This document shows positions 1 through 58,620 of a stretch of 64,000 nt of DNA, one piece after another. How positions within the stretch are numbered: position 1 is the stretch's first letter; every line of letters starts with the position of its first letter. The DNA is taken from NCBI GenBank assembly GCA_963715335.1, contig CAVQRZ010000014.1:160001-224000 (forward strand), written 5' to 3'. Both the position numbers and the translations under genes were made by a program. This DNA is from an uncultured delta proteobacterium. GTDB lineage: Bacteria > Desulfobacterota > Desulfuromonadia > Desulfuromonadales > BM103. The notes below the pieces were generated by a model. It was not told the DNA's origin, searched no databases, and saw only the letters and a program-made list of their open reading frames with translations.

Positions 1-2
1 CT

Positions 3-587
3 TCTTCGGCACAGCTGCTTGAGCGTGAGGTCGCCAATGCGGAGGCCCGGCAACTGCTTGAAATTATCCAGGAGGAGTCAACCCGCCTGAATGGGTTGAT
101 CACGGAGTTTCTGACCTTCGGTCGGCAGCTCGAGCCACAGCGCCAACCGTGCGACCTGGCGGCATTGACTGCGCGTATCCTTGACTCCCTGCAGAATGTG
201 GCGCAGCAGAAGAGGGTTGCCCTTGCCCTCGATCGCGAATGCTCAACCTGCATCGCTTCCGTCGATGCCGATATGATGCAGCAGGTCCTGCTCAACCTGC
301 TCTTGAATGCGCTGGAGGCAACCGCTCCGGGCGGCCGGGTTCGTGTTGTTTTGGAACAGTATCCGGAGCGGCTCGATATTGTGATCGACGACTCAGGTCA
401 TGGTATCCCCGCAGAGAACCTGGCCAAGGTCTTCGACCCGTTTTTTACCACGAAGAGTGAGGGCACCGGCCTCGGCCTTGCCAATGCCTACAAGATCATG
501 GAGAGTCATGGCGGCTCATTGAAAGTGGCCAGCCACGTCGGCCAAGGCAGTAGATTCACCGCTTCACTTCCACTGGAGGTCAGTTGA
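3..587 (+). CDS. Sensor histidine kinase, C-terminal part (end of HisKA plus HATPase_c); 5' end outside window
   Basis: The frame is open from base 3 (SSAQLLERE...IIQEESTRLNGLITEFL). N-box QVLLNLLLNA, G1 DSGHGI, F-box FDPFFTTK and G2 GTGLGL are present. Confidence 0.93.
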   Translation, partial: SSAQLLEREVANAEARQLLEIIQEESTRLNGLITEFLTFGRQLEPQRQPCDLAALTARILDSLQNVAQQKRVALALDRECSTCIASVDADMMQQVLLNLLLNALEATAPGGRVRVVLEQYPERLDIVIDDSGHGIPAENLAKVFDPFFTTKSEGTGLGLANAYKIMESHGGSLKVASHVGQGSRFTASLPLEVS

Positions 588-1957
588 ATGGCTCACATCC
601 TGGTTGATGATGATGAAAAAATTACCGGTTTGTCCTGGCGAAACTTCTGACTGACGATGGCCACCGGGTCTCAGTTGCCGAGAACCCGTTTGCAGCCCTC
701 GAACTGCTGGGCCGTGAAGATGTTTCGCTGATCCTTTCCGACCTGAGGATGCCGAACATGGACGGCATGGTGTTTCATCAGCGCGTTGTGGAAGATTACG
801 GTGATATACCGTTTATTATCATGACCGCCTTCGCGACCGTGGAAACTGCCCTGCAGTCGATGAAGGCCGGAGTCTTTGATTACCTGATGAAACCTTTCAA
901 GAATGAGGAGATTCTGGTAGTGGTCGAAAAGGCTCTCGGTTTTGCCAGGCTTCGGACTGAAAACACCCTGTTGAGACGACAGCTAGATGCGGGTAACGGC
1001 AGCGAAATCATCGGCCAGAGCGCGGCCGTTCGGCAGCTCCTCCAGGAGATCAAACAGGTCGCGCCTGCGCCGACGTCTGTTCTGATCACTGGTGAGAGCG
1101 GCACCGGCAAAGAACTGGTTGCCAGGGCGTTGCATCACTCCAGCCCCAGGCAGAGTGCTGCACTGGTGGCGGTCAATTGCGCCACCTTCGCCGAGAACCT
1201 GCTCGAGAGCGAGTTGTTCGGTCATGAACGCGGGGCCTTCACAGGGGCCACTGAGCGCAAGCGTGGTCTGCTCGAGATGGCCGACGGCGGCACCTTGTTT
1301 TTAGATGAAATAGGCGAGATGCCTTTGCCCCTTCAGCCCAAGCTGCTGCGCCTGCTGCAGGAGAAACGCTTCAGGAGAGTCGGCGGTACTGCGGAAATCG
1401 AATGTGATGTACGCGTGGTGGCTGCGACCAACCGGGATCTGAAGACCCTGATCGCGGCAGGGCAGTTTCGAGATGATCTCTATTACCGTCTCAACGTGGT
1501 AACCTTGAATATCCCGCCGCTGCGGGAAAGAGCAGAAGACATACCGTTGTTGGCCCTGTTCTTTGTGCGACGTTATGCCCGGGAGTTGGGCCGGCCGGTT
1601 AGCGGATTTGCCGCCGAGACGCTGCAACTGCTGCAGCAGTATGCATGGCCCGGCAACGTTCGCGAACTGCAGAACATCATTGAACGGGGCGTACTGTTCT
1701 GCAGCGGCGATCAATTTACGCCGCAGGAGCTGCCGTTGTCCCTGCAAGGAGCTGTTGCCGATTCAACTGAAACCAGATTGAAAACACCGGAACTCGGTAA
1801 GCCATTACCCGAGCTCCTCGATAAAGTTGAATCAGACCTGATCCAGCGGGCCATGATTCAGGCCCGCGGGGTCCAGGCCCGGGCTGCGAGGTTGCTGGGC
1901 ATCAGTCGCAGTAACCTGCAGTACAAGTTGCGCAAATATGGCATGATGTCCGACTGA
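588..1957 (+). CDS. Sigma54-dependent response regulator (NtrC/AtoC family: REC, AAA+, Fis HTH); one-base frameshift near 616-621
   Basis: ATG588 reads MAHILVDDDEK. Adding one A to the A6 run joins it to NYRFVLAKLL...LSDLRMPNMDG. Motifs GESGTGKE, ESELFGHERGAFTGA (GAFTGA), LFLDEIGE, WPGNVREL and a C-terminal HTH are present. Confidence 0.92.
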
Positions 1958-1986
1958 TGCAGAAATTTTGCAATTGCAGTCTATCG

Positions 1987-2036
1987 CCGGGGCATTATGT
2001 ACAGCTTTTTGTACAAAATGCCCCGGGTTTTTATTT
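1987..2036 (+). terminator. 17-bp inverted repeat (one mismatch) followed by a T-rich tract; terminator and/or enhancer-binding site
   Basis: CCGGGGCATTATGTACA-gctttt-TGTACAAAATGCCCCGG then GTTTTTATTT. It lies just after the NtrC stop and about 40 bp upstream of a sigma54 promoter. Confidence 0.5.
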
Positions 2037-2067
2037 AAAACGTAATGATTCAAGCGTCTTAACCTGT

Positions 2068-2083
2068 TGGCACAGCTGCTGCA
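2068..2083 (+). promoter_or_regulatory. Sigma54 (-24/-12) promoter for the YceI-PKS operon
   Basis: TGGCAC-AGCTG-CTGCA. GG at 2069-2070 and GC at 2081-2082 are separated by exactly 10 nt. Confidence 0.75.
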
Positions 2084-2275
2084 TCGTAACAGCTGACGAG
2101 ATGTTCCGTGCCGGTGTTCTGAGCTGCCTGGACAAGCCATTCGACAATCAGGCATATTGACTCTGGTCGCCGATATTTTGTTGCAGCGACCCGAGACCTT
2201 GTGTGTGGCACGGAACGGTCTTGAAGATCAACCATTTATCAATAAAGATGTTTTCCAGAAGGAGCCTGTGACCTC

Positions 2276-2896
2276 ATGAAGCTGCGTATTTGGATCATCA
2301 GTATTGCCGCCGTTCTTAGCCTTGCCATCTATGCAGAGGCAATACCCCTGGATGGAGAGTGCTCCATCCGGTTTTTTGGTAAATCGACCCTGCATGATTT
2401 CGCAGGTCAGGCTGTCTGCCAACCCTTTGTGCTGCAGACCGAAGATCAGGAATCGGGCCGTCAGGTGGTTCGGCAGCAAGTGGTGACTGTTCTGGTCAGT
2501 GAGATGGACACTGACAATGAAGGGCGTGACAAGAAGATGCGGGGCATGTTTGACAGCACAAACTTCCCCGAGATCAAGGGCCACTTCGCTGACCTTGAAC
2601 CGGAAGTGGTTCTCGAACAACTCAAGGCGGCCGAAAACGGGCAGGGGAATCTTGAGTTCGATTTGCAGATCCGGAAGATCACACAACACATCAAGGCCAA
2701 AACCAGTCGGTTGACGATCACCCCGGAACAGATAGTATTCACCATGGAGTTCCCACTGTCGTTGGCCAGTTTCGAACTCAAGCCGCCAAGCGTGATGGGT
2801 ATAATCCGCGTGGCTGACGACGTGCAGGTTGAGGTTCAAACCACCCTGTATCGCCAGCCCTCCGCTAAAGGATCGGCGGCCGAGAAGGAGCAATGA
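2276..2896 (+). CDS. YceI-family (polyisoprenoid/lipid-binding) periplasmic protein
   Basis: Signal peptide; motifs IRFFGKSTLHDFAG, MDTDNEGRDKKMRGMFDSTNFPEI and LASFELKPPSVMGIIRVADDVQV match YceI-like barrels. Confidence 0.8.
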   Translation: MKLRIWIISIAAVLSLAIYAEAIPLDGECSIRFFGKSTLHDFAGQAVCQPFVLQTEDQESGRQVVRQQVVTVLVSEMDTDNEGRDKKMRGMFDSTNFPEIKGHFADLEPEVVLEQLKAAENGQGNLEFDLQIRKITQHIKAKTSRLTITPEQIVFTMEFPLSLASFELKPPSVMGIIRVADDVQVEVQTTLYRQPSAKGSAAEKEQ

Positions 2897-2897
2897 T

Positions 2898-4058
2898 ATG
2901 TCTGTCTGGATCCAGCACATCGAAACCATGAATCCTGGAGTGGCCTATTCGCAGGAATATGCCAGCAGGAAGATGCAGGAATGGACTGAGGATGACCGCC
3001 TCAAGCGCATGACCAGGATTCTTTACAAGAAATCCGGTATCGATCGTCGATATAGCGTGATCACATCTTTCGACCAGAATCTGCCCGGAGATTTTTTCCC
3101 TCTCGACGATGGTGGCAAAAGGCGTGAACTCTCCACTGCCGAACGCAATGCCATCTATACCCGGGAAGCCCACGGACTGTCCGTCGATCTGGCGCGCAAG
3201 ACGATTGAAGGCTGCCCCGGTGTCGAGGCAGAGGATATAACCCATGTGATTACAGTCTCCTGTACCGGTTTCTGCAATCCCGGGCCCGATTACCATATCG
3301 TCAACGATCTTGGCCTGTCCCATGCGACGCAACGTTATAACCTCGGCTTCATGGGTTGCTATGCGGCTTTCCCCGGGTTGAGAATGGCCCGGCAGTTCTG
3401 CGAGGCCAACCCGGAAGCTGTTGTGCTGGTGCTGTGCCTTGAACTCTGCAGCCTGCATCTGCAACTCAACGATCGCGAAGATTCGATGCTGGCCAATTCG
3501 CTCTTCTCCGATGGCGCCGCGGCTGTGATTGTCAGCGCCCGCCCGCCTGAGCCGACCCAGTCAGCTTATCGATTCGGTCATTTTCATTCGTCCCTGGTCC
3601 CCAGCGGCAGGGCCGACATGGCCTGGACCATAGGCGATCTCGGTTTCGACATCGCCCTGTCAAGCTACGTGCCGAAGATCATCGGCGCCAATATCCGCGA
3701 AGCGATCAAGCCGGTCCTCGCTTCGCGCAGTCTTGGCCTTGAAGATATCGGAACCTGGGCGGTCCATCCCGGCGGTAAGGCGATTGTCGACAAGGTGGCT
3801 GAAAGTCTTGACCTCAGTGACCCGCAAGTCGCCGCCTCGCGTAAGGTTTTGCGCGAGTACGGCAACATGAGCAGTGTCACGATCCTGTTCGTCCTGCGCG
3901 AAATATTGCACCGCAAAGATGCCCCGCTCACAGAGGATATCTGTGCCATGGCATTCGGCCCGGGGTTGACTGTCGAGATGGGACTGTTGGAGGCACAACG
4001 TTATCGTCAGGGAATAAACGTGGTCAGACCGCATGAGGTCGAACCGGTCCTGGCGTGA
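2898..4058 (+). CDS. Type III polyketide synthase (chalcone/stilbene synthase family)
   Basis: Catalytic triad motifs GFMGC (Cys), WAVHPGG (His) and GNMSS (Asn), plus VSCTG, LFSDGAAA and FGPGLT. Start taken as ATG2898, immediately after the yceI stop. Confidence 0.96.
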   Translation: MSVWIQHIETMNPGVAYSQEYASRKMQEWTEDDRLKRMTRILYKKSGIDRRYSVITSFDQNLPGDFFPLDDGGKRRELSTAERNAIYTREAHGLSVDLARKTIEGCPGVEAEDITHVITVSCTGFCNPGPDYHIVNDLGLSHATQRYNLGFMGCYAAFPGLRMARQFCEANPEAVVLVLCLELCSLHLQLNDREDSMLANSLFSDGAAAVIVSARPPEPTQSAYRFGHFHSSLVPSGRADMAWTIGDLGFDIALSSYVPKIIGANIREAIKPVLASRSLGLEDIGTWAVHPGGKAIVDKVAESLDLSDPQVAASRKVLREYGNMSSVTILFVLREILHRKDAPLTEDICAMAFGPGLTVEMGLLEAQRYRQGINVVRPHEVEPVLA

Positions 4059-4082
4059 TATTGACTGAGACGGAATAAACCC

Positions 4083-6362
4083 TTGTCAGGATTGCCAAAG
4101 ATAATGCCATGGCTGTTGACCCGCGGCCGGACTCCGGCCCTGCTGGTACTGGTCTGCCTGACCTTGTTTATGTCGGTGTTTGCCAGTCAGCTCCGTGTCG
4201 AGCAGGAGCCACACTCGATGGTTTCAAGTCAATCCGGGCAATTGGCCACTTATGACAGGTTCCGTGATCTGTTCGGCAATGACGAAGACCTGCTCTTGAG
4301 TGTCACGCATCCGCAATTACTTGAACCGGTCGGTCTGGCGATCATTGCCGGTCTGACTGAACGGCTTGCGGGTTTCGCAGGCGTACGACATGTCTTGAGC
4401 CTGAGCAACGCCCGACAACTGGTTTCAGGTCGATATGGTGCCGAGGATGTTCCCCTTCTGCCCGACCGGGCCAGCACCGAAGATTTGACAGCTGCGGTCG
4501 GGACCGCACTTGAGAGGAACCCCCAATATGAAGGATTGCTGATTTCGCGGGACCGGCGCACAGCGGGGCTGCTTGTCGAACTGGATGATCACCGCGGCGA
4601 TGTTGCGCAAAGGCACCGTCTGATCAGTCAGATCCGGGCCATGATGAACGACCTGGAAGGGCAGGCGGAGCTTCATCTGACCGGGGTCGGGGTACAGAAG
4701 ATCGATGTGGCTGATTACGTGCAACGCGATCAGCAGATCGTCCTGCCTCTGGTCGTGGTGGTCCTGGCTTTCATGCTGGCCATAATCTTTCGTCGTCCCT
4801 CCGGAATCCTGCTGCCTTTGCTGGCGACCATGGTCAGCCTGGTCTGGACGATGGGCTTCTATGCCTTGTGCGGATTCGAACTGAACATTATAACCTCACT
4901 GCTGCCACCGGTGGTTATGGTGCTCGCGATCTCGAACAGCATCCACCTTTATAACGGCTGGTTGCACCTGGAAGATGATGACAGCCAACGGGTCGAAAAA
5001 ATCGTCGCCAAGGTCGGAGAGCTCTTTCTGCCCTGTCTTTTTACCGCGTTAACGACCGCTCTTGGCCTGATTTCGTTGACCATAAGTGCGGTGCCGGCCG
5101 TTCGTCAATTTGCCCTGTTCGCTGCCGTCGGGGTGCTTGTTTCCCTGCTGGTCAGCCTGACCCTGGTTCCGATCGGCATGAGTTTCCTGCCTTTGCCAGG
5201 GCGACATTTCCGAACCGGGACCGGTCTGTTGAGGGTGGTCCTGGAGAGGATCGCGAATCTTACCGTGAATTCCCCTCGCGCTATCATGCTGGTTGCGCTG
5301 CTGTTGCTGGCCGTGACCATGTTCGGCCTGCCCCGGCTGCAAAACAACACCGATATGGTCGGTTTCCTGCGCTCTGATGCACCCCTGGCCATTGACACCA
5401 GGTACATCGATCGGCAACTGGCCGGTGTGAATACCATAGAGTACATGCTCGACAGGAAAGACGGCCGGGCCCTGGAATCCCCTGGCGATTTTTCCCGGTT
5501 GGCACAATTCGAGGCTTACGCCAGGTCTCGAGAACCGGTGGCCAACGTCTATTCGATCCTGACTTTATTGCGCCAGGTCCACCGTGCCGAGACCGATGGT
5601 GCGCTGTCGCAACTGCCTGCTGACCCTGATCAGCTGCGTTATGAATTCGACCTGATGGCCATGGCACCGGACCAGTCCATGCAGAGGCGATTTTTGGCTC
5701 CTGATCGGGCAACGGCCCGGGTCAGTGTCTGGCTGCACGACATCGGCAGTCGAAAAACCGCCGACGTCGTTGATGACCTCGATGCGTACGGCAGCACGCT
5801 CTTCGGCGACGGTTACCGGTTGACTCCAACCGGCAGCTTTTACCAGTTGACCCAGGATTCAAACCGCCTGGTCGCAGACATGCTCAAGAGTTTCGCTCTC
5901 TCACTCTCATTGGTCATGCTGGCAATCCTGGTGTTGCTCCGTTCACCCAGGCTGACTCTGCTGGCAATGATCCCGAACCTTATCCCGATCCTCTGGACCT
6001 TTGGTCTCATGGGCCATTTCGGTATTGACCTGAGCACCGGGACCGCGATGATCGGAGCGGTCGTCATCGGCCTGGCCGTTGATGACACCATCCATTACCT
6101 GGTGCACTACCGACGTGTCTACGCCGGGGTCGTCAGCAAGGCGGTGACCGAGACCACCACCCGGATCGGTCGGGCTCTGATGATTGCAACGCTGGTTTTA
6201 GCTTGCGGTTTCTGGGTCGGCTGTCTTGGCAGTTTCAAGCCGACGATCTACTTTTCATTTCTGGTCGGGGGAACGCTGTTCGGGGCTTTGATCTGTGATC
6301 TTCTGGTACTGCCTGCCTGCCTGATGCTCGGCTGCCCGACCCGCCGCGAGGCCGCCTCATGA
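4083..6362 (+). CDS. MMPL/RND-family lipid exporter
   Basis: 759 aa with two repeats of TM, periplasmic domain and multi-TM block. Motifs GLAVDDTIH and LFTALTTALG. Confidence 0.9.
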   Translation: MSGLPKIMPWLLTRGRTPALLVLVCLTLFMSVFASQLRVEQEPHSMVSSQSGQLATYDRFRDLFGNDEDLLLSVTHPQLLEPVGLAIIAGLTERLAGFAGVRHVLSLSNARQLVSGRYGAEDVPLLPDRASTEDLTAAVGTALERNPQYEGLLISRDRRTAGLLVELDDHRGDVAQRHRLISQIRAMMNDLEGQAELHLTGVGVQKIDVADYVQRDQQIVLPLVVVVLAFMLAIIFRRPSGILLPLLATMVSLVWTMGFYALCGFELNIITSLLPPVVMVLAISNSIHLYNGWLHLEDDDSQRVEKIVAKVGELFLPCLFTALTTALGLISLTISAVPAVRQFALFAAVGVLVSLLVSLTLVPIGMSFLPLPGRHFRTGTGLLRVVLERIANLTVNSPRAIMLVALLLLAVTMFGLPRLQNNTDMVGFLRSDAPLAIDTRYIDRQLAGVNTIEYMLDRKDGRALESPGDFSRLAQFEAYARSREPVANVYSILTLLRQVHRAETDGALSQLPADPDQLRYEFDLMAMAPDQSMQRRFLAPDRATARVSVWLHDIGSRKTADVVDDLDAYGSTLFGDGYRLTPTGSFYQLTQDSNRLVADMLKSFALSLSLVMLAILVLLRSPRLTLLAMIPNLIPILWTFGLMGHFGIDLSTGTAMIGAVVIGLAVDDTIHYLVHYRRVYAGVVSKAVTETTTRIGRALMIATLVLACGFWVGCLGSFKPTIYFSFLVGGTLFGALICDLLVLPACLMLGCPTRREAAS

Positions 6363-6994
6363 CGCGGTCGTTTTTGACGTTACTGTTGACCTTCGCAGTG
6401 ATCTCATCCTCCTGGGCCGGAGAACCTCGACAGGGCCGCTTGGCGGCCCTGCTCGAAACGGCCAATGACCAGGTCGTTCATCGTGTCGTAGTTCCATCGA
6501 CCGAACAGCCGCAGGGCGAGGTCCAGTTGCTCCGACGTAACAACCTGCTGGTTGTCCGTACTCTCCTGGCCAGCCGGGTCCTGAAACGTGTCGGCGCAAC
6601 CATCGATGCAAGGGAACGCCGCAACTGGCCTGAATCCCGGGATGGCCACGCGGCATCGGTTCGTTACCGGGACGAGCTGTTCCGGGCCGTCGAACAGGCC
6701 TGGGAAAGGTTTCGCCAACGCACTGATCCGGGCGAAACCCGCCAGTTTCTGTCTATAGAATTCATTCTTGCAGGCGACAGTGCAGCCATCGCACTGTCGC
6801 TGCCAAGCCTTGAGGGTGATTATGGCCGTCTGACATTACTTAGCCAGGAGAATATCCAGGCATGGAAGGTTTCACGGAGTTATGTGCGGGGCAATATTCT
6901 TGAAATTGTGCAGGACAGTTTTCACCTCGATGAGTCGGCGGCCTCTGCATTGCTTGCTCCGCTTTGGCCCGACGGCGACCGTGCCGAACGCTAA
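6359..6994 (+). CDS. Exported hypothetical protein, translationally coupled to MMPL
   Basis: ATGA overlap with the MMPL stop; Sec-type signal peptide ending SSWA; no family recognised. Confidence 0.75.
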   Translation: MTRSFLTLLLTFAVISSSWAGEPRQGRLAALLETANDQVVHRVVVPSTEQPQGEVQLLRRNNLLVVRTLLASRVLKRVGATIDARERRNWPESRDGHAASVRYRDELFRAVEQAWERFRQRTDPGETRQFLSIEFILAGDSAAIALSLPSLEGDYGRLTLLSQENIQAWKVSRSYVRGNILEIVQDSFHLDESAASALLAPLWPDGDRAER

Positions 6995-7054
6995 CAGGAT
7001 CTGACCTGTCCGGGGGATTACAGCTGTAGCATCAACCTGAGAATTGAGGGCCAT

Positions 7055-7801
7055 GTGGCAACAAACAGTAAGTTTTCCCTGAAGATCAGGGATTATATAA
7101 ATACTCCGGAGCGCAAGCGAGAATACAACGAACAGCATTTCGGTGAGGCGGCCCGGCACTATGATCTTGCCACTCGAGCCATGTCGCTGGGACGAGATAT
7201 GGCCTGGAAACGGAAGCTCGTTGCCGCTCTACCGAGGTTCCCGGCACCGGTCTGTGTCGATCTTGCCTGTGGTACCGGTGACGTCACCCTGCTTTTGGCC
7301 GACAAGTATCCTGCCGGCCGTGTTATCGGCATAGATCTGACCGAGTCGATGCTGAAGCTGGCCAGGCAGCGCAGCCAGGCAGGCAATGTCGAGTTCCTTC
7401 ATCAGGATATGGGTGCGACCGGTCTGCCGGATGAACTGGCGGACATTGTTACAGGCAGCTATGCCGTACGCAATGCCCCGGAATTTCACCAGGCTTTTGT
7501 TGAAATCCATAGAATTCTCAGGCCGGGTGGATTTGTCGCCTTGCTCGATTTTTCGAAATCTCCGAAGCCCTGGTTGCAAAAGCTGCAGCTCTTCGTCCTG
7601 AAATACTGGTGCGGTCTGTGGGGGTTGATCCTGCACCGCAACCCCGAAGTGCATTCCTACATCGCTGCCAGTCTGAAAAGTTTTCCGGATCGCATCCGGT
7701 TGCACGACCAGCTGCAGGAATGCGGTTTTGCAATCAGTTATTCGAAACGCTTTTACCTGGGGACAGTGGAGCTGCTTGTGCTGCAGAAACCGGGGATATA
7801 G
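7055..7801 (+). CDS. UbiE/COQ5-like SAM-dependent methyltransferase
   Basis: FGEAARHYDLATRAMSLGRDMAWKR, DLACGTGD, EIHRILRPGG, LLDFSK and SYIAASLKSFP follow the UbiE/MenG pattern. Confidence 0.88.
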   Translation: MATNSKFSLKIRDYINTPERKREYNEQHFGEAARHYDLATRAMSLGRDMAWKRKLVAALPRFPAPVCVDLACGTGDVTLLLADKYPAGRVIGIDLTESMLKLARQRSQAGNVEFLHQDMGATGLPDELADIVTGSYAVRNAPEFHQAFVEIHRILRPGGFVALLDFSKSPKPWLQKLQLFVLKYWCGLWGLILHRNPEVHSYIAASLKSFPDRIRLHDQLQECGFAISYSKRFYLGTVELLVLQKPGI

Positions 7802-7931
7802 CCTGTGGCGTAACCGGGGAGCGCAGATGGATTGCAGGTCGTCTGAAAAACGATAGTTTCTCGGAACAGTCAGGCGCGCCTCACTGACATATGTCGAAAA
7901 TCAGTAAAATTCATGAAGCTTAGGTACCCTT

Positions 7932-9479
7932 TTGTCAAAACAACCCGTGAAGCATGACGTAATCATCGTTGGCGCCGGGCCGGTCGGTTTGACAATCGCC
8001 AACCTCCTGGGCCTCTACGGTGTCCGGACTCTTGTCCTGGAGAAAGAACTCCTGGCCCCGGACGCGCCCCGCGCGGTGTCTCTCGATGACGAGAGCCTGC
8101 GTATCTGGCAGCAGTGCGGGTTGCTCAAGGAGATGACCCCCTTTATCGCTGAGGGCGAGGAAGGGGATTTGGTCTTCACCTATCGCACCCGGTCCGGGCG
8201 GGCGATCTTCAGCATGGCCCAGCGCGGCCGTCCCTATGGCTATGCCCGGGGCAACGTGTTCCTGTTCCATCGCGTTCTGGAAGTGTTGAGGGCAGGAATC
8301 GAGCGCTTTGCCCATGTCGAACTTCGCACCGGCTGGTCTGCCCGAAGCTGCAGCCAGGATGAAGGGTGTGTCCAACTGGCTGCGCGTGATCAGGACGGGG
8401 CGTTGCAGAACCTCACCGCAAGCTACCTGGTCGGCTGCGATGGTGGCCGCAGCACGGTTCGGAACGCCCTGAACATACCGATGCAGGGCTCCGCCTATGC
8501 CGAGGCCTGGCTGATCGTCGACACCTTCACCCCCGATCTCGCTGAACAGCCGGTTCGGCAAGGTGTCGAAGTCTGGTGCGACAAACGATGCCCGACGGCA
8601 AGTATCCCGTTGCCCGGCGGCTATCGGCGCTGGGAATTCCTGTTACGCGAAGATTTGAGTGCTGCGGGTTGCCTAGATGATGACCGGATCCGGTCGCTTA
8701 TAGAGCAGCGCACACCTCTCGGTCATGCCAGGATCGTGCGCCACCTGGTGCACACCTACAAAGGGAGCGTGGCGGAACGTTACGGCGTGGGCCGTGTCTT
8801 CCTGGCTGGCGACGCTGCCCATCTTTCCCCGCCATTTGCCGGACAGGGTCTGGCCACAGGTTTGCGGGATGCGGTTAATCTATGCTGGAAGCTTGCGTAT
8901 GTGCTGCGCGGCGTGGCGTCCCCTGATCTGCTGCACAGTTATCAACGGGAACGTCGGCCACATCAGCTCACGATGCTCCGGTTGGCCAGGCGGATGGGGA
9001 AGATGATGATGCCAAGAACCCGTCTCCAGGAAGTTATGGTCGTTGCCCTGTTTGCCTTGGCCGGTCGTTTCAGATGGTTAAGGCAATCGATGGAGATTCG
9101 GGGGGCGAATGTCACCCCGGTCTACGCCGAACGGGGAAAGGTGAAAAGCGGAAAGACCGGGCACTACCTGATTCAGCCAGGGGTTGGAAACCATGGGTTG
9201 CTCGATGATCTGCTCGGCCTGAATTACGCTGTGGTCAGCTTTGACAGGCCAGCGCAAGAGGCCTTAAGTGCCCAGGAGTTGCAGTCCTGGCAGCGTTGCG
9301 GAGCCACATTCGTTTGGCTGCGGCCCGAGGGTCAAACCGCTGAGGCTTTCCTGGCCTTCCAAGACTGGCTTGGCGATTGTCGATGCCGCCTGCTGATCGT
9401 CAGGCCGGACCGCTTTGTCAGTGATGATCGTGTCCTGCCCGAGCTGGCAGCTGATACAAGTCTGGAGCTGTCGGCCTGA
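7932..9479 (+). CDS. FAD-dependent aromatic hydroxylase/monooxygenase (MhpA/PheA-like)
   Basis: GAGPVG Rossmann motif, GCDGGRS (DG motif), LAGDAAH..PPFAGQGLATGLRDAVNL (GD motif) and C-terminal IVRPDRFV. Confidence 0.92.
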   Translation: MSKQPVKHDVIIVGAGPVGLTIANLLGLYGVRTLVLEKELLAPDAPRAVSLDDESLRIWQQCGLLKEMTPFIAEGEEGDLVFTYRTRSGRAIFSMAQRGRPYGYARGNVFLFHRVLEVLRAGIERFAHVELRTGWSARSCSQDEGCVQLAARDQDGALQNLTASYLVGCDGGRSTVRNALNIPMQGSAYAEAWLIVDTFTPDLAEQPVRQGVEVWCDKRCPTASIPLPGGYRRWEFLLREDLSAAGCLDDDRIRSLIEQRTPLGHARIVRHLVHTYKGSVAERYGVGRVFLAGDAAHLSPPFAGQGLATGLRDAVNLCWKLAYVLRGVASPDLLHSYQRERRPHQLTMLRLARRMGKMMMPRTRLQEVMVVALFALAGRFRWLRQSMEIRGANVTPVYAERGKVKSGKTGHYLIQPGVGNHGLLDDLLGLNYAVVSFDRPAQEALSAQELQSWQRCGATFVWLRPEGQTAEAFLAFQDWLGDCRCRLLIVRPDRFVSDDRVLPELAADTSLELSA

Positions 9480-9488
9480 CTGTTGAGG

Positions 9489-10112
9489 TCAGGGTTTGTC
9501 CGCTGCGCGTGGCAGCCGCTCACTTTTGTGGGTTAAAACCCTGCCCAGCCCGAGCAGACCGACCACGGTGAAAAAGACTCCTCGCCATTTCACCGGTTGT
9601 TTCCCTTCACTCAGAAAGATCACATCTTCGGCTACGTCGAGGCCTGTCTGCTGGGCCAGTTTCAGAAGTTTCTGCTGGTTCCCTCTGACGATGAGGCCAG
9701 CAACCAGCATACCGGTGATCTCGCGCTGCCCTTTGAATGTCCCCGCATGCTTTTGACGGAAGGCCTGTTTCTCCGGGATCGTATCGGTGAAGAAATGGTA
9801 GTCCTTGAAGAGTTGCAGAAGTTCGGGGTCGCGGGTTTCCACCATGACCCGGATCCGTTCCTGGTCGGGATGGGGCACGAGGGGGACCAGGAGGGCTTCC
9901 ATTGCTACGGAGCCGGAAGTCGAGATCGCCCGGTCCAGGTCCAGGTAGCCGGCTGCTACGCTCAGCCATTCCTGCGGCGCGCCGCTGTCCTCCAGTTGGC
10001 TGATCGTGACTGGTTGTGGCGACTGGTTGTTGAACCAGAGCAGCAGGTCGTTGCCACCGAGATAGAGCAGGACCAGGCAGATGGCGATCAGGGTGAATCG
10101 AAAACGTTTCAT
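9489..10112 (-). CDS. Hypothetical membrane protein (N- and C-terminal TM helices)
   Basis: 207-aa ORF with host-like codon use and hydrophobic segments at both ends. Confidence 0.7.
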   Translation of the reverse strand: MKRFRFTLIAICLVLLYLGGNDLLLWFNNQSPQPVTISQLEDSGAPQEWLSVAAGYLDLDRAISTSGSVAMEALLVPLVPHPDQERIRVMVETRDPELLQLFKDYHFFTDTIPEKQAFRQKHAGTFKGQREITGMLVAGLIVRGNQQKLLKLAQQTGLDVAEDVIFLSEGKQPVKWRGVFFTVVGLLGLGRVLTHKSERLPRAADKP

Positions 10113-10154
10113 ATGTTAGTTCCGAAGTTGGGATGTCCCCGCCAAACACAAAGA

Positions 10155-10178
10155 GAGGGGCTGCCGGAGCAGCCCCTC
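10155..10178 (-). terminator. Rho-independent terminator after actP
   Basis: GAGGGGCTGC-cgga-GCAGCCCCTC hairpin with a T-rich tail on the minus strand. Confidence 0.7.
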
Positions 10179-10213
10179 CACTCTTTACAATGTTTCTATC
10201 AATGATGCAAGGA

Positions 10214-12145
10214 TCAGGCTTCTGCGCCTTCCTCGATCATGGCCCCCTTCTTCTGGGTAACCAGGGAAACGAGAACCAGGGCGATGAAGCTGGCCGGGAT
10301 CGAGATGGCGGCCGGACTGTTGAAGGCAACCGGTGCGTCCTGCGGCAGCAGACCGTATCGGACCCACATGTCCGGCGAGACCAGGATCAGGCCGAGAGAA
10401 GATGTCAGACCGATCAGAATTGACGCAGCGACGCCCTGGGCCGTGGTCTTCTTCCAGAACAGGATCATCAGGATCGCCGGCAGGTTCGCCGATGCGGCGA
10501 CTGCGAAGGCCCATCCGACCAGGAAGGAAACATTCATCCCTTCGAAGATGATGCCGAGGTAGATAGCGATAGCACCGATGACCATGGCCGAAATCTTTCC
10601 GGCCCTGACTTTGCCTTGCTCGGTCATGTTCATGCCGAAGAAGTTGTCCATCAGGTCGTGTGCTACCGCGCCGGCCGATGCGACAATCAGTCCGGATACG
10701 GTGCCGAGCACCGTAGCGAAGGCCAGTGACGAAATGACTGCGAAAAGGACGACCCCGAAGGAGAGGGCCAGCAACGGTGCCGACATGTTGTTGTCGGTGA
10801 TGTTGATGACGCCGTTGGTCATCGCGCCGAGACCGAGGTACAGGGTCAGGATGTAGAAGAAACCGATTGCGGCGATGCCGACGATGGTCGATTTACGCGC
10901 AGCCGCCTGGCTCGGAACCGTGTAGTAGCGGATCAGGATGTGAGGCAGCGCTGCAGTCCCGCAGAACAGGGCGAGCATCAGCGAGATGAAGTTGAATTTT
11001 TCCAGGCCGGTTGCGTTGTCGACCTTGAACTTCAGGCCGGGGCGCAGGATGCGGCTGCCGGGAGTTGGCTTCTGATAGTAGATGGTGGTCGTGGCATCAC
11101 CAACCTTGACGTACTTTTTGCCCCAGAGCACCACGGTGCTCTCCTTGAAGCGATTCAGAAACTCCAGCGGGCCGACCGCACCGGTCTGGGCAATTTCCTT
11201 GCCGTCGACTTTGATTTCCTTGATGTGACCGACCGCATAAAACTTGCCGTCCTCTTTGGGTGCACCGTTGAACAGCTTGGTGCCATCGGCCAGTTCGGTC
11301 GTGTAAAGGGCCTCGGCCAGTTCGAAGCCGCCAGCCGGGTTTTCCTTGAGGTGCCAGACGGTTTCGTTGCCGTCCTTGGCCAGCTTGACGAAGCCGGCTT
11401 TACCGAATTCGGAGTCAAGCCCGTCAACCACAGCATAGCCTGGCACTTGCAGCTCACCGTTGGCGACAACGGCCTGCAGGTCCTGGAACTTGTGGTACTC
11501 CTTGGTGCCGCCCTGATTGGGCTCGGTGCCCAGGCCACGGAACAGCACCAGGCCGACGACGATGGTTGAGCAGATCAGGAGCAGTGCGCCCTTGAAGAAC
11601 TGCACGTAGGTGGTTGAGGCCATGCCGGCCGTCGCAACGATGATCGTTACCACCACACCGACAATGCAGACGCCGACCCAGTGCGGCATGCCGAGCAGAG
11701 GCTGAACCAGGACGCCGGCGCCGACCATCTGCGGGATCAGGTAGAAGACCGAGATGGCCAGAGTTGAAATCGCAGCCATGAGCTGGATCGCTTTGGAGTT
11801 GAACTTGGAGTCGAGAGCGTCGGTGAAGGTGTACTTGCCAAGGCGCTTCATCGGTTCGGCGACCAGGAAGAGGGCGACCATCCAGCCGGCCAGGTAGCCG
11901 ATCGAATACATCCAGCCGTCGAAACCGGCGGTTGCGATCATGCCGCAAATACCGAGGAAGGATGCTGCCGAGAGGTAGTCGCCAGCGAAGGCAATGCCGT
12001 TGGTGAACCAGTGGATGTTGCCGCCGGCGGCGTAGTAGCCGGCAGCCGAGGTGGTTCGGCGTGCCAGGTAGAACGACAGGCCGAGGACAAACAGGACAAA
12101 CATGACGAACAGGCCGATGGCCAGAGGTGATTGTGTGTATATCAT
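10214..12145 (-). CDS. actP: Cation/acetate symporter, sodium:solute symporter family
   Basis: NGIAFAGDYLSAASFLG, FYLIPQMVGAG, GTAALPHILIRYYTVP..AARKS, AFATVLGTVSGL and AFAVAASANLP; paired with a DUF485 gene. Confidence 0.92.
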   Translation of the reverse strand: MIYTQSPLAIGLFVMFVLFVLGLSFYLARRTTSAAGYYAAGGNIHWFTNGIAFAGDYLSAASFLGICGMIATAGFDGWMYSIGYLAGWMVALFLVAEPMKRLGKYTFTDALDSKFNSKAIQLMAAISTLAISVFYLIPQMVGAGVLVQPLLGMPHWVGVCIVGVVVTIIVATAGMASTTYVQFFKGALLLICSTIVVGLVLFRGLGTEPNQGGTKEYHKFQDLQAVVANGELQVPGYAVVDGLDSEFGKAGFVKLAKDGNETVWHLKENPAGGFELAEALYTTELADGTKLFNGAPKEDGKFYAVGHIKEIKVDGKEIAQTGAVGPLEFLNRFKESTVVLWGKKYVKVGDATTTIYYQKPTPGSRILRPGLKFKVDNATGLEKFNFISLMLALFCGTAALPHILIRYYTVPSQAAARKSTIVGIAAIGFFYILTLYLGLGAMTNGVINITDNNMSAPLLALSFGVVLFAVISSLAFATVLGTVSGLIVASAGAVAHDLMDNFFGMNMTEQGKVRAGKISAMVIGAIAIYLGIIFEGMNVSFLVGWAFAVAASANLPAILMILFWKKTTAQGVAASILIGLTSSLGLILVSPDMWVRYGLLPQDAPVAFNSPAAISIPASFIALVLVSLVTQKKGAMIEEGAEA

Positions 12146-12160
12146 GGTGGTTTCCCCCTA

Positions 12161-12424
12161 TCAGTTCAGGCGCGCTTCAGCGGCGGTACAGAAGTGGTTG
12201 TAGATGATCGCCAGCACGAATGCAAAGATGATCAGGAAGAAGCCGTAGAGCACGGCGAGGGTCTGGCCGAAATAGACTTTTTCCATCAATGCCGGGTAGG
12301 CGGCGTTGATGACGACAAAGCCGAAGTAGGTCAGAGTGTAGACGATGAACATCGTAACGCCGAGTCTGGTCTTGTACCCGGCGGCGTTGTCCTTGCCGAG
12401 TTTTGCTGCTGGTCCGTGTCCCAT
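12161..12424 (-). CDS. DUF485 (YjcH-like) small membrane protein, ActP partner
   Basis: 87 aa with two TM helices, directly upstream of actP. Confidence 0.85.
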   Translation of the reverse strand: MGHGPAAKLGKDNAAGYKTRLGVTMFIVYTLTYFGFVVINAAYPALMEKVYFGQTLAVLYGFFLIIFAFVLAIIYNHFCTAAEARLN

Positions 12425-12945
12425 GGGTAATGACTCCTTTTCCTGTGTGATTTACCTGATTTGTCTCCGAAATAACTACATCTGGCAATCATATGGCAAT
12501 AAGTTTTCGCAGCCATACAAGCTGCTCAGCATATCATAAAGCTAGGGATTCCAACTGCTTGGTCCAGGTTGAAGCTTCCAGATAAGGCCTTGGGATTGCA
12601 CAATTGTAAGAGAGAGCTAAGGGTACGTATGCGCGATAAATAACCAAATCATGGTGGTATTTTTTGCGACATGATACGTCGTTCTAAAAAGAAGTCAATA
12701 AAAAATTTCACATAAACAGGCCACTTATTGAGGGGGTTAGGATAAAGTGTGCGGAATTTCAGGAGATTTAACTTCTGTAAAAAAATAACTGATCGTGGGG
12801 ATAAAAAGACGTTTTATCTTATAGGTTAAAAGTTTATCAATATGGTTTTCGAGATAAAAAACGCTCTGTACTTTACCTAGCTTGACGGGTCAAGTTATAA
12901 GGTCAAGTCAGGGTAGCGATGTGGCTTACAGGGAAAGGTCTGCTC

Positions 12946-15255: not shown

Positions 15256-16119
15256 CTAAAAACTGAAGGTGGTGCGGATCGTGCCGGTCTGCGTCGAGCC
15301 TTCACCATCGCTGTGGCCGAAAGCGTAGCCGGCCTTGATCTCCATCCTGTCCCACAGGGGGATGATCAGTTGCGGGACGGCCTGGACAATCTGCCGGTCG
15401 TTGAAGTCGGTGCTGTAGAGGACCTCGAAGGCGGGTTTTATGAATCCTTCCGCATTATAGACCGCCCCCCCGCTCAGGTTCAGCAGGTAGAATTCGGTCC
15501 CGTTATCACTCGGGTTGATGTCGTCAGAGTCAAAATAATAGCGACTATCCACGCTTGCCTGCAGGCGGATGTTCCGATCTGCTCTGGCATTGTCAACATT
15601 GAGACCGAGACGGGCGACACGCCCGGTGTGGTTATACACATCGTCGACGCTGGTTTCCAGCCGTGCAGACCGTGTGCCGCCACCGAAATAGATGGAAGAG
15701 TTGACAGGGTATTCGTCAGTCCTGGTGAGTTCTCTCTGCAGCACCAGGGTTGCGAAATCGTAGACGCCGCCATCGCCGTCGATGTCAACGGATTCGCCGG
15801 TCTCTATGACCTCAGCGTCACCGTCGGTATAGAAAGGATATTCGAAACGTACTTCCCAGCGCTTCTCCTGGCCGAAGGGCACGATGATTTCAGCTTTGGT
15901 CGAGTAGCCATCAAACTCGTTAGCTTCTTCCAGGGCGACATTCCTGAAGTTGTCGTAAGTGAGGTTCACCGTGATCCGTTGTACGTTGCGGGCATTCCGG
16001 GTATATATCGGCTCCAGTTCAAAAAGATTCTGCCGGGCCTTTCTCTCCCCACTGTCGGCGAGTGCGGAGGTGGCTAACAACAAGAGAATACCGATAACCA
16101 GAGAAGACACGTATTTCAT
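15256..16119 (-). CDS. Putative outer-membrane beta-barrel protein
   Basis: Signal peptide MKYVSSLVIGILLLLATSALA, amphipathic Y/F/G-rich strands and terminal Phe (TTFSF). GGAG RBS 8 nt before ATG16119. Confidence 0.7.
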   Translation of the reverse strand: MKYVSSLVIGILLLLATSALADSGERKARQNLFELEPIYTRNARNVQRITVNLTYDNFRNVALEEANEFDGYSTKAEIIVPFGQEKRWEVRFEYPFYTDGDAEVIETGESVDIDGDGGVYDFATLVLQRELTRTDEYPVNSSIYFGGGTRSARLETSVDDVYNHTGRVARLGLNVDNARADRNIRLQASVDSRYYFDSDDINPSDNGTEFYLLNLSGGAVYNAEGFIKPAFEVLYSTDFNDRQIVQAVPQLIIPLWDRMEIKAGYAFGHSDGEGSTQTGTIRTTFSF

Positions 16120-16325
16120 TTTCATAACTCCATTCCCGGGGGTTGATTTGTTTAAGTACTGAAGATGGATGAAACCAGTCAAATATCGTACAGCGTATGT
16201 CATCGGATCGACCTAGCCATCAAGCTGAACTTCTATCCGAAGTCCTCTCTATTGTCAAATTCATAAGTTTAGACGATTTCCTGCATAGACCTCGACGTGA
16301 CATCGAGCGGGCGATCGCCTGCCAC

Positions 16326-20262: not shown

Positions 20263-22695
20263 TCAGAACACGATCTTGTAGACATCGTTAAAGGTCCTGA
20301 CAAAGTGAACCTCCAGCCCTTCCTTAAGGTAGTCCGGCAGTTCTTCGTAATCTCTGCGGTTGTCCTCCGGGAAGACCAGGATCTTGAGCCTTGACCGGCG
20401 CGCCGCGATGGTCTTTTCCTTGAGCCCGCCGATCGCCAGGACGCGCCCGGTCAAGGTCAGTTCGCCGGTCATGCCGAGGCGTTTTTTCACGGTTTTCCCA
20501 CTGATCATCGAAACCAGGGCGGTGGCCATGGTAATGCCTGCCGAAGGACCGTCTTTCGGGGTGGCCCCCGCCGGAACGTGCAAGTGAATAAAATGCTCGT
20601 CGAAGAATTCCGGATCGCCGCCGAAGTCGGTAATGTGGGCCATGACGTAGGAATAGGCGATCTCCGAGCTCTCGATCATCACATTGCCGAGCTGGCCGGT
20701 CTGCTTGAACCCCTTGCTCTTGGCAATCATGGCGGTTGCCTCGATCTGCAGGGTTACGCCGCCGAGGCTGGTCCAGGCCAGACCGGTGACCACTCCGGGG
20801 ACTCCCTCGAAAATCTCGTCGGCGGCAAAGACCGGCTTCTGGAGATAATTCTCCAGTTCATGTGTGCCGATGGTCAACTTCTCCAGGCTGTCATTTTCGG
20901 CAAACTGCATGGCTGCGCGGCGCATTATTTTCTTGATCTGCTTCTCCAGATTGCGGACACCGGCTTCCCGGGCGTAACCATCAATGATTTGTTTGAGCGC
21001 GGCTTTACGAATCGAAATATGGTTGCGTACCAGTCCGTGTGTGCCAAGGGCTTTAGGAATCAGGTAGCGCTTGGCAATTTCAAGTTTCTCCTCGAGGATA
21101 TAGCCTGAAAGACGGATCATCTCCATCCGGTCGAGGAGGGGCCGGGGGATGGTGTCCAGCTGGTTGGCCGTGGCAATGAAGAGTACGTTGGAGAGATCGA
21201 AAGGGACGTCGAGGTAGTGATCACGGAAGCTGCCATTCTGTTCCGGGTCCAGGACCTCAAGCAGCGCCGAGGCAGGGTCGCCCTGGAAGGAAGCACCGAT
21301 CTTGTCAATCTCGTCGAGCATGATGACCGGATTGGCGGTGCCGACAGTTTTCATGGCCTGGATGAACTTGCCCGGCATAGCACCGATGTAAGTGCGGCGG
21401 TGCCCTTTAATCTCAGCCTCGTCACGCATGCCGCCCAACGAGAAACGAAAGAACTCCCGACCGAGGGCATTGGCGATGCTGTGGCCGATTGAGGTTTTGC
21501 CGACCCCGGGGGGGCCGACCAGGCAGAGAATCGACCCGGAAATGTCGCCTTTCATCTTGCCGACGGCGATGAACTCGAGAATCCGCTCCTTGACGTCCTT
21601 GAGACCGTAATGGTCGCGGTCGAGTATCCTCCTCGCCCGGGCGATATTGTACGAATCCTTGCTGAAGAGGCCCCAGGGCAGGATCGTTAGCCAGTCGAGG
21701 TAGCTGCGGCTGACATTGTACTCGGGTGATGATGGTTCAATCAGCTGCAGCTTCTCCAGCTCGTCTTCAACGGCCCGCTCTGCTTCCTCGTTCAACCGAA
21801 GCTTTTTAAGCCGTTTACGGAATTTCTCGATTTCCGTGACTTTGCCCTCTTTTTCCAGCCCCAGCTCCTGCTTGATTGCCTTGAACTGCTCGCGCAGGAA
21901 GAATTCGCGCTGCTGGGCGGAAATCTTCTCTTCGATCTGCTTGGAGATCTTGGTTTGCAGGCGCGACACCTCCAGCTCCTTCTTGAGCAGGACGAGCACC
22001 TTGTCGATGCGTTTGCGGACATCAAAAGTGGCCAGGATGTCCTGCAGCTGCTGACCATCTGAATTGGTCAGGTTTGCAGCGAAATCGGCCAGGCGACCCG
22101 GGTCGTCGAGACTGGAACGGTTCAGAAAGAGCTTGATCTCCTCGCTGTAGAGCGGGTTGATCTGGACAAGTTCCTTGAGCGTGGAAAGGATCGCCATCGA
22201 ATAGGCGCGCAGCTCCGGGTTGACCGAAAGCTCGGTGGCGAAGTGGTAGCGTACCCGCGCATATATCGTCAGCCCGCGCGCCTGGATCTCTTCGATCTCA
22301 AAACGTTCCATGCTGTTGACCAGGATATGTGCTGCGTTCTTCTCGGTGTGGAGGACCTTGATGATTTTTGCGGCGACGCCGACCTTGTGCAGGTTCTCAA
22401 TGCCGTCATCACCATCAAGCTCTCTGACCATGACCAGGCCGATCGACTGGGCCTGGTGCTCCATGGCCTGATGCATTGCCGCCACCTGCGCCTGGCCGTT
22501 GAGAACCAGGGGGATCATGATGCCGGGGAAGGCCGGTCGCGGGCGCAGCGGTATGATCGGCAATCCGGTCGGCAGGACCTCCGAGGCCACCACCAAGCCC
22601 CCCTCGCTGGCGTGCTCCTCGATAATTTCATTCATTTTGTCGTGATCGATTTCAAAATCTGACATCATATCCTCAAATTCATTCTCATCGTGCAT
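20263..22695 (-). CDS. lon: ATP-dependent Lon protease
   Basis: LON N-domain, Walker A GPPGVGKT, catalytic PKDGPSAG and IGGLKEK. Start at ATG22695 with a GGGGAG RBS. Confidence 0.97.
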   Translation of the reverse strand: MHDENEFEDMMSDFEIDHDKMNEIIEEHASEGGLVVASEVLPTGLPIIPLRPRPAFPGIMIPLVLNGQAQVAAMHQAMEHQAQSIGLVMVRELDGDDGIENLHKVGVAAKIIKVLHTEKNAAHILVNSMERFEIEEIQARGLTIYARVRYHFATELSVNPELRAYSMAILSTLKELVQINPLYSEEIKLFLNRSSLDDPGRLADFAANLTNSDGQQLQDILATFDVRKRIDKVLVLLKKELEVSRLQTKISKQIEEKISAQQREFFLREQFKAIKQELGLEKEGKVTEIEKFRKRLKKLRLNEEAERAVEDELEKLQLIEPSSPEYNVSRSYLDWLTILPWGLFSKDSYNIARARRILDRDHYGLKDVKERILEFIAVGKMKGDISGSILCLVGPPGVGKTSIGHSIANALGREFFRFSLGGMRDEAEIKGHRRTYIGAMPGKFIQAMKTVGTANPVIMLDEIDKIGASFQGDPASALLEVLDPEQNGSFRDHYLDVPFDLSNVLFIATANQLDTIPRPLLDRMEMIRLSGYILEEKLEIAKRYLIPKALGTHGLVRNHISIRKAALKQIIDGYAREAGVRNLEKQIKKIMRRAAMQFAENDSLEKLTIGTHELENYLQKPVFAADEIFEGVPGVVTGLAWTSLGGVTLQIEATAMIAKSKGFKQTGQLGNVMIESSEIAYSYVMAHITDFGGDPEFFDEHFIHLHVPAGATPKDGPSAGITMATALVSMISGKTVKKRLGMTGELTLTGRVLAIGGLKEKTIAARRSRLKILVFPEDNRRDYEELPDYLKEGLEVHFVRTFNDVYKIVF

Positions 22696-22877
22696 GGATG
22701 CAGCTCCCCATCGCAAAGATAAATCCTTAGAAAAGCTAATCATTTCAGGTCGTATTGTCAACCACGTCTTGGCGAGTTAATGGTCATATTTAGTTTGGCC
22801 GGGATTTTCTTCTCCTTTGCCTCCAGGTCATCTTGTGAAATAATGCCCGCCACCTGACCCTGAAGGAGCATCGCCAT

Positions 22878-42794: not shown

Positions 42795-43250
42795 ATGGGA
42801 TTCCAGGGCGTCTATTTCAATTCAATCGATGCAAAAGGGCGGGCAAGTATCCCGGCCAGGTTTCGCGAGCAGTTGAAAGAACTGTTCGAAGATGAAACAC
42901 TGGTCGTGACGCAGGATCGCTGCGGCATCGTTGCGTATCCCGTCTCCGAGTGGAACCTTTTCCTAGAAAAATTCACGCAGCTCCCAAACGACCAGTTCCG
43001 GGAAGACCTCTACTTTACAACAGTAACCCCCGCAACCCAGTGTACCTTCGACAAGCAGGGCCGCATACAGCTGCCGCAATCCCTGCGTGAGTATTGTCAG
43101 CTCGATACGGACGGCGTGCGCGATGTGGTCATTGTCGGCGGGGCGAAGAAAATCCAGATCTGGAACAAGACAAGATACCTAGAGATGCTCGCTGAAGCAG
43201 AACAGCGCCTCGCAGATGATCGGCAGAAGCGTTTCGACCTGGGATTATAG
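42795..43250 (+). CDS. mraZ: Division/cell wall transcriptional regulator MraZ
   Basis: Two DxxGR repeats (IDAKGRASIP, FDKQGRIQLP); first gene of the dcw cluster. Confidence 0.93.
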   Translation: MGFQGVYFNSIDAKGRASIPARFREQLKELFEDETLVVTQDRCGIVAYPVSEWNLFLEKFTQLPNDQFREDLYFTTVTPATQCTFDKQGRIQLPQSLREYCQLDTDGVRDVVIVGGAKKIQIWNKTRYLEMLAEAEQRLADDRQKRFDLGL

Positions 43251-43254
43251 CTCT

Positions 43255-44199: not shown

Positions 44200-44215
44200 G
44201 CAGAGGAGAACCGCG

Positions 44216-44533
44216 ATGGCTGACACAACCCTTAAAGCGTTACCGAAAATCAATGGCTTTGCCCTGCGTCGTCCAAACCTGGTTCCGGTGCTCGGTTTTA
44301 TCGCCTTGCTGCTTTCGGTGTCGCTCTTTTTTGTCTGGTCCAGGGTTCAGGTCACCAGCCTGGAGTATGAAATGTCCCAGTTGGAAAGTACGTTACGCGA
44401 TCTGCGACAGGAGACCTCAAGCCTGCGTCTCGAGGCAGCCAGCCTCAGGAGCCCTGAACGGATTGAGCGGGTGGCGCGGCAGGAGCTGCGTCTGCGTCTG
44501 CCTTCCGCTGATCAGGTGATTACGGTGGATTGA
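44216..44533 (+). CDS. ftsL: Cell division protein FtsL
   Basis: TM helix plus coiled coil ending LRSPERIERVAR; position between rsmH and ftsI. Confidence 0.9.
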   Translation: MADTTLKALPKINGFALRRPNLVPVLGFIALLLSVSLFFVWSRVQVTSLEYEMSQLESTLRDLRQETSSLRLEAASLRSPERIERVARQELRLRLPSADQVITVD

Positions 44534-46512: not shown

Positions 46513-46533
46513 GCGAGCCTGAAGTGGCGGCGG

Positions 46534-49442: not shown

Positions 49443-49454
49443 GGGAGATCATAA

Positions 49455-50531: not shown

Positions 50532-50537
50532 AAGCAT

Positions 50538-54074: not shown

Positions 54075-54085
54075 CAGGGGTAGTT

Positions 54086-55462: not shown

Positions 55463-55492
55463 AGCGTAGGAAACAGGGCCAGGAACAAAATC

Positions 55493-56422: not shown

Positions 56423-56439
56423 CGGGTGACGGAAAAGCG

Positions 56440-57282: not shown

Positions 57283-57304
57283 ATTTAGAGGGAAGGGGAG
57301 ACAC

Positions 57305-58534: not shown

Positions 58535-58620
58535 AGTGAAAATCAAGGCAATGTGCCAGTAACTTAAACTGACGGAGCCATGGAGAGGTTCCGGACACAA
58601 CAATGGCGGAGGGAGTCATT

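Follow-up and report, generated by a model that had tools for sequence, protein, structure and literature searches.

Several bacterial gene clusters join a type III polyketide synthase (PKS) to tailoring enzymes; that of the Myxococcus Ftp system also holds an acyl carrier protein (ACP) and an acyl-AMP ligase. In SrsABC of Streptomyces griseus and PkqABC/PKS10 of mycobacteria and Streptomyces MNU77, a PKS, a methyltransferase and a flavin hydroxylase are described as yielding a long-chain benzoquinone (PMC9927152). HidABC of Cyanobium, which makes hierridins, and a planctomycete methyltransferase–oxidoreductase–PKS operon combine acyl-CoA priming without an ACP with one flavoprotein and one methyltransferase, and hierridin B is hydroxylated next to its chain (PMC10896814). 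The five-gene operon of 'Saltatorellus ferox' produces alkyl- and methyl-alkylresorcinols and places genes for a lipid/isoprenoid-binding protein and a lipoprotein next to those for its type III PKS and two methyltransferases; no hydroxylase or MMPL transporter is described for it (PMC10896814). Here we analyse a 64,000-nucleotide stretch of DNA from an uncultured Desulfuromonadales bacterium (the window), in which a type III PKS cluster of six genes at positions 2276–9479 would, by analogy, work like the srs/pkq and hid clusters.

All six open reading frames are complete, lie on the + strand and follow each other at spacings of 1, 24, −4, 60 and 130 bp, in agreement with an earlier reading of the DNA alone (the original prediction), which had listed six co-directional genes. 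In order, they encode a YceI-family lipid-binding barrel (2276–2896), the PKS (2898–4058), an MMPL/HAE3-type RND transporter (4083–6362), an exported protein of 211 residues (6359–6994), a UbiE/MenG-type C-methyltransferase paralogue (7055–7801) and a putative MhpA-like, O2-dependent flavin adenine dinucleotide (FAD) aromatic hydroxylase (7932–9479). Each has one genomic copy, methyltransferase paralogues excepted. ACP, acyl-AMP ligase and prenyltransferase families, which the original prediction had likewise not recognised, found no match among the six genes (Pfam/NCBIfam profiles), and an ACP-motif scan of window positions 1–12500 found nothing; the cluster is thus not of the Ftp type. The nearest named loci belong to a Desulfuromusa sp. 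(79%) and, within the same family, to a Desulfuromonadales bacterium (77%), which places the host in the Desulfuromonadales.

As in SrsABC/PkqABC, a PKS, a methyltransferase and a flavin hydroxylase stand in one operon. The differences are a PKS clade that, by its motifs, is probably distinct, a ring methyl that would derive from S-adenosylmethionine, a diderm host with export genes and a U32 alternative to the hydroxylase. Compared with hidABC, a tricistron with a HidA-type methyltransferase, both the gene order and the methyltransferase family differ (UbiE-type rather than PRK06202/HidA-type), the oxidase of the window's group is MhpA-like, a second flavoprotein or a U32 protein, and YceI, MMPL and a chalcone-isomerase (CHI)-like partner are present. 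The original prediction did not recognise a characterised system here. This stands with respect to hidABC and Ftp, but YceI/lipoprotein genes beside a type III PKS had already been noted in 'Saltatorellus ferox' (PMC10896814). We found no publication on this cluster or on U32 proteins paired with type III PKSs in a search of literature available without subscription.

The window appears to hold the O2-dependent form of a cluster whose hydroxylase is exchanged, almost exclusively, in sister clusters. Removal of duplicates and of short loci of 3–4 kb left 143 distinct PKS matches, each 340 residues or longer, of which we tallied the 64 loci with a UbiE-type methyltransferase (at least 43%) within 7 kb; contig ends depress the gene counts. 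YceI is present in 61 of them, MMPL in 30 and the exported-protein gene in 29, of which 26 also have MMPL. The hydroxylase slot holds a U32 protein (38 loci), a 400-residue flavoprotein (9), an MhpA-like protein (8), a more distant flavoprotein (2) or both U32 and MhpA-like proteins (1), and is empty in six, a distribution skewed to U32, since a U32 query had supplied 80 loci. Recurrence of the gene set in other genera and families, with many sediment bacteria among the carriers, shows that the cluster is not a chance arrangement and bears out its co-occurrence as a conserved unit. Of the six genes, those of the MMPL module are optional, and the hydroxylase gene moves and sometimes lies elsewhere in the genome. 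Such distant hydroxylase genes, U32 or MhpA-like, were seen in housekeeping surroundings in L247–L249 (genomes G049, G067 and G069) and G015:C10.

Several loci carry further genes. In L023, a class-III aminotransferase gene (L023:5813-7180) lies between methyltransferase and flavoprotein and could yield an amino-quinone variant. In Verrucomicrobia (L032, L036, L039, L041, L045, L049, L074, L079), the flavoprotein forms a fusion with an ICMT-like membrane protein, and L046–L063 additionally carry ketosynthase-like and small conserved genes.

For an unbiased view, the same 251 genomes of the class were surveyed with three queries. The window's PKS clade (threshold at least 53%) occurs in 34 genomes, 32 of which have a hydroxylase candidate: 10 MhpA-like (one unlinked), 13 a second flavoprotein and 9 U32 (three unlinked). 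The other two are G007 and G230, the latter at a contig end. All 10 MhpA-like orthologues (at least 56%) are in genomes of the window's PKS clade, and the U32 subfamily, present in 31 genomes, is in every case accompanied by a type III PKS match; it is absent from all 177 genomes that lack such a match. No genome in the survey combines a full MhpA-like gene with U32, G017 having U32 and a 99-residue flavoprotein remnant. Of the 80 U32 loci from metagenomes, 73 contain a further gene of the cluster (PKS in 56, methyltransferase in 64, a flavoprotein match in 2) and 7 contain none. In a FastTree phylogeny of 95 of the 143 PKS rows, in which kin are not independent, sister rows within a group with support of 99 carry U32 (L104), an MhpA-like protein (L106) or both (L122), and the U32 loci L127–L143 are nested among second-flavoprotein loci. 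The hydroxylase swap therefore occurred at least twice.

The window's hydroxylase has the GxGxxG, DG and GD motifs of FAD monooxygenases and scores under the NCBIfam MhpA cut-offs (NF004829, 364 versus 390 bits; NF004831, 428 versus 546), making it MhpA-like rather than MhpA. The U32 protein, present only in relatives, matches PF01136 above cut-off and has a conserved Cys cluster, with nine Cys invariant in 98 rows (73, 180, 184, 212, 216, 359, 364, 367 and 370). It matches none of the NCBIfam families UbiU, UbiV, TrhP and RlhA at E 0.001, and its Cys spacing is unlike the CX6CX15-16CX3/4C given in PMC6747719. In anaerobic ubiquinone synthesis, UbiU and UbiV, which are Fe–S proteins of the U32 kind, take the place of flavin hydroxylases, with prephenate as oxygen donor, and are reported there as proteins whose direct hydroxylase activity is yet to be demonstrated (PMC6747719, PMC10990095). 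The ubiquinone pathway thus shows the same alternative pairing (UbiH/I/F with flavin and O2 versus UbiU/V with prephenate) and likewise has a UbiE-type C-methyltransferase acting on an alkyl-substituted benzoquinol. In the cluster, by contrast, ring and tail would come from one polyketide with no prenyltransferase, usually either hydroxylase is present rather than both, and relatives have a single U32 with other Cys spacing and a C-terminal CX4CX2CX2C. By this analogy, the U32 protein is predicted to perform the same hydroxylation without oxygen. The U32 genes of the window's genome are TrhP/RlhA-like only, and hydroxylation there would therefore need O2.

The PKS has both Chal_sti_synt domains (PF00195 and PF02797) and the intact Cys-His-Asn triad noted in the original prediction (Cys154, His290 and Asn323). 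The triad and Trp243 are unvarying in 138 of 138 homologues, and Cys184 and His187 are invariant or nearly so. Trp243 aligns with Gly256 of chalcone synthase (CHS), which we take to be the site of the product-deciding Trp of ArsB and ArsC. In those enzymes an active-site Trp is described as setting resorcinol versus pyrone (PMC6274091), and Trp243 hints at an alkylresorcinol product. By eye, the window PKS shares SCTGF, GFMGC and ELCxLH with the S. maiorica enzyme, which is reported to produce C15/C17 alkylresorcinols; the 'Saltatorellus ferox' PKS, of the methylmalonyl group, has other active-site motifs in their place (PMC10896814). The window PKS is likely a long-chain alkylresorcinol synthase. 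Separately, a distant second PKS clade (~30%) occurs in ~21 genomes of the class in the order B12 radical SAM, (exported protein), methyltransferase, U32, PKS (L242–L245 and L254, in G116, G141, G133, G227 and G223; also L246 and L252). There U32 stands where hidABC has its oxidoreductase, an independent substitution of U32 for an oxidoreductase.

The methyltransferase scores 155.2–155.3 bits against TIGR01934 (cut-off 158.35) and is not the sole copy, a separate MenG on contig C39 scoring 253.6 bits. It is a dedicated paralogue, which refines the earlier description as UbiE-like. NCBIfam names the UbiE substrate as 2-methoxy-6-polyprenyl-benzoquinol, of which 6-alkyl-2-hydroxy-1,4-benzoquinol would be a close analogue.

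These assignments suggest a pathway. The PKS would add three malonyl units to a long-chain acyl-CoA and close a 5-alkylresorcinol. MhpA, a catabolic enzyme, hydroxylates a meta-alkylphenol at the carbon between hydroxyl and chain; the MhpA-like flavoprotein, with O2, would likewise hydroxylate the alkylresorcinol between one hydroxyl and the chain, giving 6-alkyl-2-hydroxy-1,4-benzoquinol. This is the hierridin position and would give a para-quinol. In relatives, the second flavoprotein or the U32 Fe–S protein takes the slot, presumably for the same chemistry. UbiE methylates a position on the quinol ring, and its paralogue would C-methylate the new quinol as UbiE does 2-methoxy-6-polyprenyl-benzoquinol. 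The alkylresorcinol-to-alkylquinol route of the original prediction is therefore still the best reading, strengthened by the flavin hydroxylase/U32 exchange in sister clusters, with the chemistry argued from homology.

A quite improbable alternative is that the PKS yields alkylpyrones or an unhydroxylated methyl-resorcinol, the flavoprotein or U32 protein acting otherwise, for example in turnover or detoxification of phenolics. MhpA is itself catabolic, the flavoprotein gene lies 130 bp apart, is mobile and is sometimes unlinked (G015), and pyrone synthases are among the best structural matches of the PKS (nearest PDB entries 4b0n, 7cb3 and PKS18). DquA offers a precedent, since it bears the Trp yet is reported to yield pyrones only (PMC9827899). 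That result counts against the proposed route, as do two from planctomycetes: the oxidoreductase produced no quinone in C. glutamicum, and deletion in S. maiorica had no phenotype (PMC10896814). However, hydroxylases of three unrelated or distant types occupy a single slot in near-exclusive fashion, within the 251 genomes the MhpA-like orthologue and the U32 subfamily turned up only where a PKS is also present, and no conserved ring-cleavage genes lie nearby.

The remaining genes suggest export of the alkylquinol. The transporter matches PF03176 and falls under the TIGR00921 cut-off. The 211-residue protein has no Pfam match and, by eye, a signal-peptide-like N terminus; it is tied to MMPL by gene fusions, seen in 5 of the 150 listed homologues. 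A predicted complex of the two scored 0.44 against 0.00 for the best control, with runs agreeing in at least 92% of contacts and a partner pLDDT of at least 78. We rate this prediction weak: 116 of 157 solved pairs and 2 of 215 mismatched ones came up to the mark, 18 of the solved pairs and both mismatches doing so at scores of 0.60 or below. The predicted fold of the 211-residue protein may resemble those of CHI-fold proteins, at 4–10% identity, including the non-catalytic plant FAP and CHIL and yeast Aim18/46, CHIL being described as a partner of type III PKSs in plants. Unlike these, it is exported and fused to MMPL in some bacteria, and it has no profile match to bacterial Chalcone_3. It is predicted to be an exported new family with a CHI-like fold that partners MMPL.

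The YceI protein has a PF04264 domain (E 2e-10) and, by eye, a signal-peptide-like N terminus, and its family profile matches only YceI/polyisoprenoid-binding structures in the PDB. YceI barrels are described as holding octaprenyl lipids or ubiquinone-8, and BcnA has been connected with lipid-peroxyl defence (PMC9113575). By analogy, the cluster's YceI would bind a quinone- or isoprenoid-like lipid. MMPL may therefore hand the lipid to the CHI-like periplasmic partner, with YceI as carrier; where MMPL is absent, the product would stay behind in the inner membrane, accompanied by YceI alone. The MMPL-to-YceI export of the original prediction gains a partner by fusion and loses generality, given MMPL in 30 of 64 loci.

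Taken together, the six genes are likely to turn a fatty acid into a lipid resembling ubiquinone, probably move it to the periplasm and would use it as an envelope redox buffer or antioxidant, a reading in which we have moderate confidence. Its role, the weakest step, would be that of an envelope redox lipid for cells meeting O2 at oxic–anoxic boundaries. The window's genome has separate menaquinone genes (MqnC and MenG), aa3- and cbb3-type oxidases and 27 reading frames with at least three CxxCH motifs. An aa3 and/or cbb3 oxidase is present in all 37 carriers tested (34 and 32, respectively), irrespective of hydroxylase type, and ccoN in 29 of 34 carriers versus 82 of 217 other genomes, a comparison confounded by kinship. 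The loci compared have no cytochrome or dehydrogenase gene as a conserved neighbour, and within families f27 and f28 the PKS clade was found in a single genome out of 111. The O2 reductases, the lack of a cytochrome neighbour and the scarcity in f27/f28 would argue for a redox buffer in the envelope rather than for a shuttle in metal reduction.

The same chemistry could instead give an alkyl-benzoquinone that is a true high-potential, ubiquinone-like electron carrier in menaquinone-based Desulfuromonadia, serving microoxic respiration or, as the original prediction had it, passing electrons to Fe(III), sulfur or electrodes. In mycobacteria and Streptomyces, polyketide quinones are reported to act as alternative electron carriers (PMC9927152), the pathway parallels ubiquinone synthesis down to its O2-dependent and O2-independent pair, and the carriers' heme-copper oxidases and the many CxxCH frames would suit such a role. 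It is made unlikely by the confinement of the clade to 34 of 251 genomes, by ccoN in 56 of 177 PKS-less genomes and by the missing redox neighbours; moreover, a respiratory quinone needs no export. No test in this analysis supports a role in Fe(III) or electrode reduction. The original interpretation is partly supported. We consider it equally doubtful that this is a second, non-isoprenoid ubiquinone pathway of menaquinone-based Desulfuromonadia, with interchangeable O2-dependent and U32 hydroxylases and an MMPL/CHI-fold/YceI relay to periplasm and outer membrane, in which the quinone carries electrons across the envelope.

Upstream lie genes and motifs that the original prediction had not included. 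A membrane sensor histidine kinase gene, of which the window holds the 3' part (3–587, +; HATPase_c/HisKA), starts upstream of the window and is frameshift-split in this assembly; the kinase is intact (448 residues) in G002 and occupies the matching position in L022, L024–L026, L102 and L105. A sigma-54-dependent response regulator (588–1957, +; Sigma54_activat) lacks one base in an A-run near 615–619 in this assembly; it is intact in G002, and contigs of runs X5 and X6 have the extra A. The missing base (607–619) and the many neighbours split likewise (L001 throughout) suggest sequencing errors rather than pseudogenes. A TGTACA-N6-TGTACA palindrome (1998–2015), kept in G002, is a candidate enhancer site of the regulator, and a sigma-54 (−24/−12)-like promoter motif follows (2068–2083, +), with similar motifs at the corresponding place in L022, L025, L102 and L105. 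A remnant of a stand-alone receiver-domain gene (2095–2276, +), recognised by blastn/tblastn against L102, where it matches Response_reg, is ~370 bp shorter than in G002, with a short near-repeat at the junction (2094–2101) and the promoter motif spared; the run X5 contig has additional sequence there.

Another idea is that the product is a hierridin-like, non-redox phenolic lipid serving to coat membranes or biofilms, as an antimicrobial or as a signal; the upstream kinase might sense it, and extra O-methyltransferases might cap it. The sensor/sigma-54 pair adjoins the cluster in several loci, some loci have additional methyltransferases (PRK06202-type in L127–L138, ICMT/PEMT-type in L025), and dedicated export suits a secreted compound. 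The nearest characterised PKS clade appears to be HidC/planctomycete (PMC10896814), a placement made by motif match to the S. maiorica gene by eye, the tree being without characterised enzymes. Most loci, however, lack the sensor pair, an O-methyltransferase that could block the quinol is absent from the window, and the core partners are a UbiE-type enzyme and the quinone-binding YceI family; we judge this idea improbable, too.

Elsewhere in the window, a membrane-anchored protein of 207 residues (9489–10112, −), without Pfam match, is convergent on the cluster and adjoins it elsewhere only in G002. Two other reading frames without Pfam match at E 1e-8 encode 315 residues (15256–16203, −), with the look of an outer-membrane barrel by eye, and 397 residues (62206–63399, −). 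Housekeeping genes (sodium:solute symporter, Lon, DNA polymerase I and the division/cell-wall (dcw) cluster) lie at 10214–12145, 20263–25553 and 43216–59775. Two copies each of ctaD (C37/C14) and menG (C39/C36) in G000 could stem from the assembly's contamination, put at 6.87%.

This analysis adds that the window apparently holds the O2-dependent form, that sister clusters exchange the hydroxylase in a near-exclusive manner and that MMPL has a predicted CHI-like partner. Natural matched pairs, with flavin or U32 enzymes in one slot beside PKSs 75–80% identical, allow a direct test of U32 proteins as aromatic hydroxylases with a substrate that a single PKS gene could supply, an activity described as yet to be demonstrated directly (PMC10990095). 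The cluster also points to a family of periplasmic proteins, with a fold otherwise known beside plant type III PKSs, as partners of diderm MMPL/HAE3 transporters, which are poorly understood, and to an undescribed quinone-like lipid in sediment metal and sulfur reducers.

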